Assembly: GCF_003334355.1 (NCBI RefSeq)
Contig: NZ_QOWP01000001.1
Length of the DNA stretch: 64,000 bases
Strand: one strand, 5' to 3'
DNA from: Escherichia coli
GTDB lineage: Bacteria > Pseudomonadota > Gammaproteobacteria > Enterobacterales > Enterobacteriaceae
A program made the position numbers and the translations under genes. The notes under the pieces were generated by a model that saw only the letters and a program-made list of their open reading frames with translations, was not told the origin of the DNA and ran no database searches. Below are positions 10,464 through 63,916 of this stretch, in pieces (position 1 is the first letter of the stretch; each line of letters begins with the position of its first letter).

Positions 10464-11149
10464 AGCACCGCCTTTTTCATCGCTGTGTTGTACCACTGAC
10501 AAATGTGTTCAAGACGCGTAATGGCAGAACCGACCGTCACCGCCCACGCGCCGTGGCGCATCGCATCTGCCGCCTGAGCAGGCGTGTTGTAACGCCCTTC
10601 GGCAATCACCCGACATCCGGCTTCGCTCAACGTTTTCACCAGCGCCAGATCCGGCTCTTCTGGCGTTTCAGGCGTGGTATAGCCAGAAAGCGTAGTGCCA
10701 ATAATTTCGGCTCCCAGCTTTTGGCATGCCAGGCCGTCTTCCGGCGTTGAGCAGTCGGTCATCGCCAGTAAACCGTGATGGTGAATACGTGCCAGCAGCG
10801 TTTCAACAGGCACCGGACGCGGGCGGTCGGTGCCGTCAATGGCGATAATGTCCGCGCCCGCCTGCGCCAGCGCATCAACATCTTCAATATAGGCCGTGAT
10901 GCGTACCGGAGAATCCTCCAGATCGCGTTTCACAATCCCGATAATTGGCACGCTCACCACCGCACGCGTGGCTTGCAGATTTGCCACACCTTCAATGCGA
11001 ATGGCAACCGCGCCCGCCTGTTCTGCCGCTAATGCCATGGCGGCGACGATTTCGGGTTTATCGAGCGGGCTGTCCGGAACCGGCTGGCAGGAGACAATCA
11101 GGCCACCGTTAGCAGCGATTTTTTGATCCAGTTGTGCAAGTAACGACAT
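10460..11149 (-). CDS. nanE: N-acetylmannosamine-6-phosphate 2-epimerase
   Basis: Start taken at the ATG 11149-11147 ([23 protein letters not shown]...). The stop overlaps the nanK start by 4 nt. Confidence 0.92.
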
Positions 11150-11196
11150 ACATCTTCCCTTAGCGAAAGGCCCGGTACATAGACCGGGCAACAGGA

Positions 11197-12687
11197 TTAA
11201 CTTTTGGTTTTGACTAAATCGTTTTTGGCGCTGCCAAACGGCACGGCACCGCTGAATGGTTTACCGTCGATAGCGTCATGAGTACGCAACGCTTCCGGGC
11301 GCAACCAACGCTGAACGCGAGAAGGCATATCCAGCCCAATCAGCAGGATCACCACGAACGTCAGACTGAACGAGAGCGATGCCAGCGCAGTACCCAGATC
11401 CAGACGTTGAGCGATCAACGCGCCGATGATTGGGGCCAGTGCACCGCCCAATGCGCCAACGTTGTAGGTAAAGCCCAGGCCCGCTGCACGCTGGTCGGTA
11501 TCGAAATAACCGCCAATCAGTTTTGGTAAGATCCCGGCGATCCCTTGTCCAAGCATTTGCTGGAAGAACAGTAACAGACCGAGCACCCAGACGTTTGCGC
11601 CGCCAATCGCAAATACCGGAATAATCAGCAGCTGCGAGGCCAGCAGGCTACAAACGTACGCTTTGCGGGTTCCCAGCCAGTCACCGAGGAAGCCACCTAC
11701 GCAGCATCCCACCGCCGCGCCAAAGCCACTAAAGAACAGCACATTGGCTACAGTATGCGGGTTATAAGCCAGATCGGTTTTCAGATACGTTGGCAGCAGC
11801 GCCTGAATCGGCCATGAGTAGAGGAAAGCAAACAACACGACCACCATCAGCATTACGCCCGTTGGCCAGCGTTTGCCTGTACTCTGCACCATAAAGCTGA
11901 TAAAGATTGCGGCGCATAACAGCCCAAGAACAGCGACGATCGCGGCATTTTGCAGGTTACCGGCGAAGCAGAACCACAGCGCAGTAGCCGCCGCCAGTGT
12001 CATTACGATATTGGCAATGCGATGTTCACCACGGTAGAGAATATCCACCATTGTGCGTACTGGTGCTTTACCTGCGTGTTTCTCTTTCCAGTCTTCCGCT
12101 TCCGGGATGTTTTTACGCAGCCAGAGAGCAAAGATGATTGGCAAAATGCCGATAAAGAACAGCGCACGCCAGCCCCAGACCGGAACCACCAGGCTATAGA
12201 CCTGAGCGGCAACGACGGCCCCCACAGAGAAGCCTGAAATCAAAAAACCACTGGCTTTGTTACGCAGATTTTTTGGCCAGCTTTCAATGACATAGGTGGC
12301 GCTGGAACCGTATTCACCCGCCATCCCCATGCCGATGACCAGACGAGCGATAAACATGGTGATGTAGCCTGGCGCAAAGCCGCAGGCCAGCGTCCCGGCC
12401 GAGAAGAGAACGATGCTGGTGACCATTGCCAGACGACGCCCGTAGCGGTCACCCATAGCGCCGAGCATCAGGCCGCCGAACCAGCGAGAGATAAAGGCTG
12501 CAGAGATCAGACTTGCCGCCTGCACCGTCGTCAGCCCGAATTCACCTTGTACTTCGGTGAGTACCAGGGCGATTAAAACGAAATCAAAACCGTCAAGCAG
12601 ATATCCCAACCAGGCAGCGGAAAATGCGCGCCATTGTGCACGGTTGAGATGGCGATACCACGGGATATTCTGGGTTGTAGTACTCAT
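11197..12687 (-). CDS. nanT: Sialic acid transporter (MFS)
   Basis: Start taken at the ATG 12687-12685 ([19 protein letters not shown]...). Multi-pass membrane protein of the MFS type. Confidence 0.92.
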
Positions 12688-12795
12688 TGTGAGTCTCCCG
12701 CGGTGGGCGATGCCCACACGCTTTGGTATGAAAATTGTAGGGTACAGATGCGTTTATTTCCCCTCACCCGGTAGGGGCGAGCGAGGGGAAACAAC

Positions 12796-13689
12796 TCACC
12801 CGCGCTCTTGCATCAACTGCTGGGCCAGCGCCTTCAGTTCTGGCAGATATTTTTCATCTACCGGTCCAAACGGTTTGCGGCACAGCGGCACAGAAACGAC
12901 ATCCATATAATGGAGGACAGTTTTCAGGCCGCGGAATACGCCCGTTTTGATCAGTAAATCAATGACTTTATTGCATTCAGTTTGCAGTTTCTGCGCGGTC
13001 TGGATATCGCCTTCTTTCAGCGCCTTAACGATCCCCTGATAGCGCCAGCCCATGATGTTGTAGGTACTGCCGATACCACCATCAGCGCCCGCCAGCAGAC
13101 CAGAGGCGAAGATTTCGTCGTAACCGTTATAGAGCACAAGATCAGGATGTTCACGACGGATCTGCTCCATCTGATAGAGATCGCCAGAGGTCTGTTTCAG
13201 CGCACCTACGCCAGGCAATGTAACAAGTGTGTTGATCTGATCCAGGGTCAGTTTTACCCCACTCAGGGCTGGAATGTTGTACACCACCATCGGCAAACCA
13301 TCCGCCGAATCAATAATTGCCCGATAGTGATCGCAGTGTTCTTCAAAGCTGAAAGGATAGTAGAACGGCGTGACGGCGGAGACGGCATCGAAGCCATAAC
13401 GTTTAGCCGATGCCGCAAGTTGTTGGCTTTCGGCGGTGCTGACGCAACCGACGTGGGCGATGAGTTTAATCTTACCTTTCGCCTCTTCGGCGACGATTTC
13501 CAGTACCTGTTCACGCTCGGAAAGGCTTTGTACAAAGGCCTCGCCGGTCGAACCACCCACGTATAAACCGTCGATGCCCTGCTGAATATTGAACTGAACC
13601 AGGCGACGCAGACTCGCTTTATCCAGTGCTTGTTGTTGGTCAAAAGGAGTCAGGAGTGCAGCCATTACGCCACGTAAATTCGTTGCCAT
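12796..13689 (-). CDS. nanA: N-acetylneuraminate lyase
   Basis: 297-aa ORF beginning [20 protein letters not shown]..., DapA-family aldolase fold, first gene of the nan operon. Confidence 0.95.
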
Positions 13690-13724
13690 AAATACCTCTG
13701 AAGTGATGCTTGTCTGATAAACGA

Positions 13725-30561: not shown

Positions 30562-30688
30562 TTCATATTGTACTGTTACGTTGTACAAACCTGTGCCAAC
30601 GGGTTCCCCTCACCCTAACCCCAGAGGAGCGAGGGGACCGTTCGTGCACGTAGAAAGATTAATTATCCTTCTGAAAATACTGAAATTA

Positions 30689-32149
<1,461 letters not shown>

Positions 32150-32181: not shown

Positions 32182-32400
32182 GCCGGATGCGGCGTGAACG
32201 CCCTATCCAGCCTACGGTTATGTTCCGGTTTGTAGGCCTGATAAGACGCACAGCGTCGCATCAGGCAACGGCTGTCGGATGCGGCGTAAACGCCTTATCC
32301 GACCTACGGTTATGTTCCGTTTGTAGGCCTGATAAGACGCACAGCGTCGCATCAGGCAACGGCTGCCGGATGCGGCGTGAACGCCCTATCCGACCTACGG
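32182..32400. repeat. REP/BIME array (repetitive extragenic palindromes) between tldD and yhdP
   Basis: Repeated units gccggatgcggcgtgaacgccctatcc...cctac and gtaggcctgataagacgcacagcgtcgcatcaggca, arranged in about three tandem ~98-bp units. Confidence 0.9.
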
Positions 32401-63438: not shown

Positions 63439-63558
63439 ATGCCTGGCAGTTCCCTACTCTCGCATGGGGAGACCCCACACTACCATCGGCGCTACGGCGT
63501 TTCACTTCTGAGTTCGGCATGGGGTCAGGTGGGACCACCGCGCTACTGCCGCCAGACA
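63439..63558 (-). rRNA. rrfF: 5S ribosomal RNA, distal copy (rrfF-like)
   Basis: The reverse complement matches E. coli 5S rRNA (UGCCUGGCGGCAGUAGCGCGGUGGUCCCACCUGACCCCAUGCCGAACUCAG...GGAACUGCCAGGCAU). Confidence 0.95.
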
Positions 63559-63595
63559 AATTCTTTTCTAATCTGCCGAACTTTAACCTAAAAAG

Positions 63596-63671
63596 TGGTG
63601 CTGATACCCAGAGTCGAACTGGGGACCTCACCCTTACCAAGGGTGCGCTCTACCAACTGAGCCATATCAGC
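63596..63671 (-). tRNA. thrV: tRNA-Thr (anticodon GGU)
   Basis: The reverse complement reads GCTGATATGGCTCAGTTGGTAGAGCGCACCCTTGGTAAGGGTGAGGTCCCCAGTTCGACTCTGGGTATCAGCACCA, a cloverleaf with a GGT anticodon and encoded CCA. Confidence 0.95.
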
Positions 63672-63683
63672 ACGCTAAATTTG

Positions 63684-63803
63684 ATGCCTGGCAGTTCCCT
63701 ACTCTCGCATGGGGAGACCCCACACTACCATCGGCGCTACGGCGTTTCACTTCTGAGTTCGGCATGGGGTCAGGTGGGACCACCGCGCTACTGCCGCCAG
63801 ACA
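63684..63803 (-). rRNA. rrfD: 5S ribosomal RNA, second copy
   Basis: Identical in sequence to the copy at 63439-63558. Confidence 0.95.
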
Positions 63804-63840
63804 AATTCTTTTCTAATCTGCCGAACTTTAACCTAAAAAG

Positions 63841-63916
63841 TGGTGCTGATACCCAGAGTCGAACTGGGGACCTCACCCTTACCAAGGGTGCGCTCTACCA
63901 ACTGAGCCATATCAGC
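63841..63916 (-). tRNA. thrV: tRNA-Thr (anticodon GGU), second copy
   Basis: Identical to the tRNA at 63596-63671; part of an exact 245-bp tandem unit. Confidence 0.9.

Follow-up and report, generated by a model that had tools for sequence, protein, structure and literature searches.

A probable decayed BoxC repeat forms a conserved hairpin in the nanA-nanT spacer of Escherichia coli

REP sequences reportedly act as mRNA stabilisers inside operons, malE-malF being the example attributed to Newbury et al. 1987. Repeats of the BoxC/PIT/TMECO family have been known for 30 years without, to our knowledge, an assigned function; PIT is said to stand for potential intrastrand triplex element, and the family literature reportedly comprises Bergler/Bachellier in the 1990s and Hoyne et al. 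2000. A summary of how REP elements stabilise the mRNA upstream of them is given in PMC12306157. BoxC is counted among the known E. coli repeat families (PMC2267715). It was found again under the names PIT element and TMECO, has the consensus CCCTCNCCC-N3-6-GGGNGAGGG-N3-GGGNGAGGG and is listed with 23 copies in MG1655 (Holder et al. 2015, PMC4666352). According to the same source, PIT/BoxC elements have no known function and no orientation or gene-class bias, full TMECO/BoxC elements form triplexes in vitro and show raised local variability, and TMECO loci vary more than control spacers do. In the account of Hoyne and Maher that PMC4666352 relays, PIT/BoxC has no promoter or terminator activity and leaves RNA polymerase unaffected.

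The DNA analysed here, a 64-kb stretch of E. coli sequence that we call the window, carries the GC-rich palindrome tttcccctcacccggtaggggcgagcgaggggaaa at 12757-12791 (35 nt, as read from the sequence) in the nanA-nanT spacer. An earlier note on this DNA had given the element as 12757-12790 (34 nt); the sequence that it quoted is present, but the true span is 12757-12791. Its placement between the nanA stop and the nanT start was right. The nanA CDS (N-acetylneuraminate lyase) occupies 12796-13689 on the minus strand, with its TGA at 12798-12796 (ORF list and RefSeq annotation of identical sequence), and the nanT CDS (sialic acid transporter) occupies 11197-12687 on the same strand, with its ATG at 12687 (ORF list, annotation and translation). 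The ORFs and the RefSeq annotation thus agree on a minus-strand nan operon, a point on which the note was silent. The palindrome starts 1-6 nt past the nanA stop and ~70 nt ahead of the nanT start. Many RefSeq E. coli genomes match the 701 bp around the site at 100% identity and annotate the genes on either side as nanA and nanT; the hairpin lies at about 3372644-3372678 in NC_000913.3.

RNA folding of the nanA-nanT junction confirmed a hairpin, and a stronger one on the mRNA strand than had been described. The note's 9-bp stem exists on the plus strand, although its loop is 17 nt rather than 16 nt, and the plus-strand transcript folds less well (z = -1.85) than the minus-strand transcript, in which 13 contiguous bp, including two G.U pairs, close a 7-nt loop at -22.8 kcal/mol (z = -4.99; 0 of 200 shuffles fold equally well). 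This core hairpin of the nan mRNA spans 12758-12790 on the minus strand, as defined by the fold and by pairing in Escherichia, and is predicted to comprise a 5' arm UUCCCCUCGCUCG (12790-12778), the loop CCCCUAC (12777-12771) and a 3' arm CGGGUGAGGGGAA (12770-12758), so that the transcript reads UGA-GUUGU-UUCCCCUCGCUCG-CCCCUAC-CGGGUGAGGGGAA-AUAAACG. When flanks are included, an 81-nt fold extends the stem to 17 bp (12754-12794, minus strand; about -29 kcal/mol, z -4.02), and a 136-nt fold returns the same extended hairpin. The extended stem begins 1 nt, and the core stem 6 nt, after the UGA of nanA. Downstream, the A/U-rich linker AUAAACGCAUCUGUACCCUACAAUUUUCAUACCAAA (12722-12757, minus strand) separates this hairpin from a second one described below; it is predicted to be single-stranded and is unpaired in the 136-nt fold. 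The nanT Shine-Dalgarno sequence GGGAG was read at 12695-12699 on the minus strand.

In being a GC-rich stem-loop located at a gene's 3' end, the nan hairpin resembles Rho-independent terminators, from which it differs in that a U-tract is absent on both strands and the downstream operon genes need read-through. The stem is followed by AAAUAAACGC on the mRNA strand and by AACAACUCAC on the other, neither of which is a U-tract, and a terminator scan of both strands gave no site at the hairpin. Since it lacks a U-tract, the hairpin is not an intrinsic terminator, and we rejected an intrinsic terminator or attenuator identity on this ground together with the absence of a T-rich tail (at least 5 T in the 8-nt tail) in all 79 orthologs surveyed below (0/79). 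A promoter consensus scan found no promoter-like site on the minus strand in 11000-14800. Nothing at 12600-12900 reached the Rfam gathering threshold, and permissive E-values yielded only noise of at most 16 bits.

The arms of the element closely resemble the outer blocks of BoxC, CCCTCNCCC ... GGGTGAGGG(G). Block 1 of the nan copy is CCCTCGCTC, one mismatch away from the first BoxC block CCCTCNCCC, and the corresponding block in E. albertii, CCCTCACCC, matches the BoxC block exactly. The last G-rich block, GGGTGAGGG, is retained: where the family has a third block GGGNGAGGG behind a 3-nt loop (TTA or CCG), the nan copy has GGGTGAGGGG behind ACC/CCG (12758-12770, minus strand). Missing is the middle block GGGNGAGGG, which in the family forms a Watson-Crick hairpin with block 1; in the nan copy, GCCCCUACC comes after block 1 in place of a G block. 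A two-G-block pattern had no match in the window even with 2 mismatches allowed, the full TMECO pattern had none there either, and the nan copy is not among the 23 MG1655 copies in the published list. Because the three blocks required for a triplex are not all present, the nan copy should, by its sequence, be unable to form one; it differs from the family in being a plain two-arm hairpin, and a triplex reading of it is largely refuted.

Further resemblances lie in genomic context. BoxC is GC-rich, strictly intergenic and present in about 19-23 copies per E. coli genome, and both copies in the window are intergenic, in keeping with a multicopy, dispersed family. A BoxC 45-mer occurred at a median of 19 places per genome across all 5,426 E. 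coli genomes (22 in MG1655), against a median of 1 for the nan 45-mer; on this count, a new subfamily of two-arm hairpins was left unsupported. The nan variant also departs from its family in being single-copy and nearly invariant, whereas TMECO loci are variable, both as reported and here. The suggestion of the earlier note that the motif belongs to a small dispersed repeat family distinct from REP proved correct, except that the family is not new but the known BoxC (PIT/TMECO). These matches give good support to the view that the nan element is an enterobacterial BoxC repeat that has decayed and collapsed, so that its two remaining blocks would pair as a simple hairpin.

The homologous spacers of related genera bear on this origin. 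We collected 80 NanA loci, one per species, and found exact matches to the full TMECO pattern between nanA and nanT in Pseudocitrobacter faecalis (one), P. vendiensis (five) and Enterobacter sp. kpr-6 (two), corresponding to loci L007, L010 and L047; P. faecalis has an extra inverted BoxC copy just short of the exact pattern, and the Kluyvera spacer contains a partial BoxC copy. E. coli and these spacers have flanks in common, namely GTT.TT after the stop and AAACGCATC...TTCATACCAAAGCG downstream. Full BoxC elements within shared flanks in the homologous spacers of relatives indicate that the Escherichia hairpin is a collapsed BoxC. It may derive from a collapsed inverted BoxC pair or from a single BoxC that lost its middle block, two candidate origins between which a MAFFT alignment cannot discriminate. 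The P. vendiensis spacer (L010:3394-3797) has grown to 403 nt by its five full BoxC/TMECO copies, four of which form a tandem array of ~73-nt units with the conserved spacer CCGCACCCACATAACCGCTGGCGCGGTCGG; this arrangement suggests a larger composite repeat unit.

A second BoxC-derived element in the window offers a view of how such copies decay. The pattern CCCCTCACCC-N(2-30)-GAGGGG matched exactly twice in the 64-kb window against 0.00 expected from shuffles. The other match is TTCCCCTCACCCTAACCCCAGAGGAGCGAGGGGA at 30604-30637, in the convergent aaeR-tldD spacer, where the earlier note had reported a near-identical motif at 30603-30639; the arms TTCCCCTCACCC ... GCGAGGGGA are indeed shared, but the interior differs. 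This copy carries CCCTCGCTC when read on its G strand, and GGGTGAGGGGA occurs exactly at both copies. In MG1655 the same site is the complete TMECO no. 14 (3,390,494-3,390,529, within the spacer 3,390,450-3,390,582 of NC_000913.3) and matches the full TMECO pattern, of which the window holds a 6-nt-deleted allele. Across the spacer (window 30563-30695; loci L001 and L085-L088) the allelic series comprises the full element (MG1655), the -6 nt form (window), a 1-nt variant and a -12 nt form in strains 1002W03 and AR_451. The full, -6 nt and -12 nt alleles are direct evidence of BoxC decay by internal deletion to simpler hairpins, and the series is consistent with the reported instability of TMECO. 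An IS4-like ISEc13 is inserted in the aaeR-tldD BoxC element of an EPEC1 construct. Overall the spacer is polymorphic, with lengths of 125-139 bp and only 366 of 5,422 E. coli genomes at least 99% identical to the window allele.

Within E. coli the nan spacer is close to invariant. It is present in 5,409 of 5,426 genomes, of which 5,280 share a 171-bp segment at 99% identity or more. Over the 61 nt around the hairpin, 4,419 of the 5,409 agree fully and the other 990 carry one change; in the variants examined, this change falls in the T-run 5' of the core stem, outside the core. To place the hairpin on a longer time scale, we compared seven species-level lineages of Escherichia (E. coli clusters, E. 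albertii, E. whittamii and two Escherichia species). Variable columns make up 5 of 34 in the hairpin against 230 of 395 four-fold sites (58%) of nanA plus nanT (p = 9e-7), with none among the 13 of the 3' arm or the 7 of the loop. The core 13 bp are 100% paired in nine Escherichia sequences. All four variable stem positions lie in the 5' arm and are transitions, three C-G<->U.G and one G.U<->A-U; every substitution is one-sided and keeps the pair in the sense RNA while producing a mismatch in the antisense RNA. Given the ts/tv ratio from the four-fold sites, all four changes would preserve pairing by chance with a probability of ~0.017, a figure that depends on the assumed ancestor. Double compensatory changes were absent from the core stem in Escherichia, where only wobble-compatible single changes occurred. 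The BoxC remnant was already fixed in this spacer when the Escherichia species separated.

Conservation is not confined to the hairpin. Among the seven lineages, the linker is variable at 5 of 36 columns and the segment from the Shine-Dalgarno sequence to the ATG at 0 of 15. The spacer as a whole (12688-12798) is far more conserved among the Escherichia lineages than the flanking four-fold sites.

Hairpins after nanA recur in other genera, where REP, BoxC or unrelated palindromes make them up. In a survey of 79 enterobacterial species, 63 had a single hairpin that begins at most 15 nt past the nanA stop and folds at -14 kcal/mol or below, and by motif the 79 orthologous spacers divided into 51 REP-like, 11 BoxC-like and 17 other. 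REP elements occupy the nanA-nanT spacer in Salmonella, Citrobacter, Enterobacter and Lelliottia; the REP consensus core GCCGGATG...CATCCGGC is absent from 12700-12800 of the window, and REP-like cores are absent from the Escherichia spacers. The 60 nt after nanA fold more stably than the last 60 nt of nanA (median -21.8 vs -14.4 kcal/mol, p = 5e-9) and modestly more so than the 60 nt after nanT (-21.8 vs -19 kcal/mol, p = 0.001). The nanT-nanE spacer failed as an unstructured control, being itself fairly structured, and since the 60 nt after nanT are also structured, the cross-species signal of a hairpin after nanA is only moderately specific. Trabulsiella (L044, L046) is among the few species without any stem-loop after nanA; its nanA frame is 15 nt longer and its spacer, of 32-33 nt, has no hairpin. 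The assembly of Chryseobacterium sp. 18061 (L051) contains an enterobacterial nanA-nanT locus nearly identical to that of Citrobacter sp. 18056 (L049) from the same study, and is likely contaminated or mislabelled.

A second hairpin, GCG-U-GUGGGC-AUC-GCCCAC-CGC, lies at 12700-12721 on the minus strand, directly 5' of the nanT Shine-Dalgarno sequence, with its inner helix at 12703-12717. The 6 bp of the inner helix are 99.1% paired across 19 sequences from about 10 genera, and compensatory double changes occur at four of the six pairs (22 such cells; shuffles gave 6.4 +/- 3.3, and none of 500 reached 22). Structural evidence for this nanT-leader hairpin is stronger than that for the BoxC hairpin. 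It is kept in Escherichia, Kluyvera, Pseudocitrobacter, Raoultella, Leclercia, Phytobacter, Siccibacter and Buttiauxella, is absent from the leader of the Salmonella/Citrobacter type, and has no Rfam match. Its presence fits a processed intercistronic region.

The closest functional parallel to the nan hairpin is the REP/BIME (PU) element, which it resembles in being a stable hairpin without a U-tract, a few nt past the stop of the upstream cistron and inside an operon, and from which it differs in belonging to an unrelated sequence family without the GCCGGATG/CATCCGGC core. We know of no link between this BoxC-type element and the TnpA-REP transposase. By analogy, the likeliest role of the hairpin would be that of a REP-like barrier to mRNA decay or a cistron boundary. 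The polycistronic nanATEK mRNA would carry a very stable stem-loop of 13-17 bp located 1-6 nt past the nanA stop, which RNA polymerase would read through, a U-tract being absent. Endonucleolytic cleavage may then occur in the A/U-rich linker downstream, the candidate entry region, after which the hairpin would block 3'->5' exonucleases, stabilising the nanA segment relative to nanT-nanE-nanK and marking the cistron boundary. The conserved hairpin ahead of the nanT ribosome-binding site could in turn cap the 5' end of the downstream fragment. An RNase-protective structure giving differential nanA and nanT expression, one of the options raised in the earlier note, is the one that we also favour, on the indirect basis of conservation, pair-preserving changes on the sense strand and analogous hairpins in other genera. 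Taken together, BoxC-derived identity and a REP-like barrier role make the best joint explanation available, one on which our confidence is evenly balanced.

Against the barrier role, the loop is free of substitutions, which a pure barrier does not require, conservation covers the whole spacer rather than the hairpin alone, the core stem shows no double compensatory changes, the cross-species signal is only moderately specific, and PIT/BoxC elements have no demonstrated function. Spacers such as this one may also do no more than tolerate REP and BoxC elements. A literature search on a nanA-nanT stem-loop or on processing of the transcript returned nothing relevant. The Term-seq tables of Adams et al. 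2021 list no 3' end at the hairpin, which is weak evidence because the nan operon was uninduced in those experiments. The same tables contain one strong 3' end in nanA, at NC_000913.3 position 3373531 (window ~13644, minus strand), 45 nt inside the ORF, a position suggesting that transcripts may end early or be processed near the start of the operon.

Several other readings compete with a decay barrier. The hairpin may be a dead BoxC fragment at a tolerated site, folding without effect and owing its conservation to other constraints in the spacer, such as nanT translation initiation. We consider this rather unlikely, although the conservation of the whole spacer, and not just of the hairpin, keeps it in contention, as do stem changes that are one-sided only and the lack of a known function, orientation bias or gene-class bias in BoxC/PIT (PMC4666352). 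Repeats of several families also pile up in the nanA-nanT spacer of other genera, as they would at a permissive site. A relic of this kind is harder to reconcile with a 3' arm and loop that are invariant next to four-fold sites variable at 58%, with the retention of sense-RNA pairing in all four stem changes (p ~0.017), and with the essentially fixed state of the nan copy when the aaeR-tldD BoxC is highly polymorphic in E. coli and published TMECO loci exceed control spacers in variability (PMC4666352). A different effect on expression would follow if the hairpin stalled ribosomes terminating at the nanA stop, leading to mRNA cleavage, tmRNA tagging and less NanA. No data on NanA tagging were found, and proximity to the stop is weak evidence because short spacers put any hairpin near it. 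Even so, the stem begins 1 nt past the UGA in its extended form and 6 nt past it as the core, 63 of the 79 species have a strong hairpin that begins no more than 15 nt beyond the stop of nanA, and, in the account of Liang, Rudd and Deutscher 2015 given in PMC12306157, REP located at most 15 nt from a stop codon modulates translation; that rule was, however, set up for REP sequences and not for BoxC-type hairpins. With the base of the stem inside the footprint of a terminating ribosome, such a translation-coupled brake is a live rival that may coexist with the barrier, but we judge it distinctly unlikely.

Transcriptional attenuation or partial termination between nanA and nanT, through hairpin-dependent pausing or Rho, appears very improbable, and of the options in the earlier note the attenuator is the least supported. 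A strong GC hairpin inside an operon would suit it, and REP/BIME can accompany transcription attenuation according to Espeli et al. 2001 as relayed in PMC12306157. Set against this are the missing U-tract, the empty terminator scan on both strands, the lack of a T-rich tail in any of the 79 orthologous hairpins, the report, via PMC4666352, that PIT/BoxC has neither terminator activity nor an effect on RNA polymerase, and the need of nanT, nanE and nanK for read-through when no promoter-like site was seen on the minus strand in 11000-14800. Finally, action at the DNA level, as an intrastrand triplex or H-DNA-like structure or as a recombination hot spot of the kind proposed for full TMECO/BoxC, is hardly credible. 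Descent from a family with reported in vitro triplex formation and elevated local variability (PMC4666352) speaks for it, yet the missing middle G block should preclude a three-block triplex and the full pattern is absent from the window. The nan locus is moreover among the least variable rather than the most, and its pairing is kept by G.U wobble, which is relevant to RNA but would give mispaired bases if the opposite DNA strand folded into a hairpin.

Returning to the decay barrier, a bolder version would join both hairpins. The BoxC remnant may have been exapted into a conserved bipartite intercistronic RNA module, consisting of a 3' cap hairpin for nanA, a cleavage site in the A/U-rich linker and a covarying 5' hairpin at the nanT Shine-Dalgarno sequence, which would set segmental decay and the NanA:NanT ratio, with REP (Salmonella, Citrobacter) or unrelated palindromes elsewhere as convergent solutions. 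We offer this tentatively and lean against it; if true, it would give a BoxC-derived sequence an assigned function for the first time. A barrier at this position would help to explain different levels of enzyme and transporter from one nan transcript. The nan element is mostly ordinary and classifiable within a known repeat family, its conservation inside an operon being what is unusual: a decayed BoxC copy appears fixed and under purifying selection in an operon where sister genera keep REP or other hairpins, which makes it a concrete, testable case of repeat domestication as an mRNA boundary element. Should the hairpin prove inert, two GC-rich motifs would still have been assigned to a known family and a route of BoxC decay documented.

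Several other features of the window were recorded alongside. The nan region is identical to that of K-12, and the aaeR-tldD allele is non-K-12. At nine sampled positions of the K-12 yhcD-yhcF fimbrial region (L001 12900-15000, including the IS5 in yhcE), no exact 30-mer matched the window, a comparison that concerns the window upstream of about 7400; the unmatched fimbrial 30-mers and the aaeR-tldD allele together indicate that the window is not K-12. Between tldD and yhdP, Rfam returned two matches to naRNA4 (CssrE, REP325-derived) on the minus strand, at 32235-32304 and 32326-32395, which are the REP units of the earlier note and belong to a repeat family different from that of the nan/BoxC element. 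The tail of an rrn operon lies at the end of the window (63441-63916, minus strand), with a duplicated 5S, each 5S rRNA gene being followed by a tRNA.
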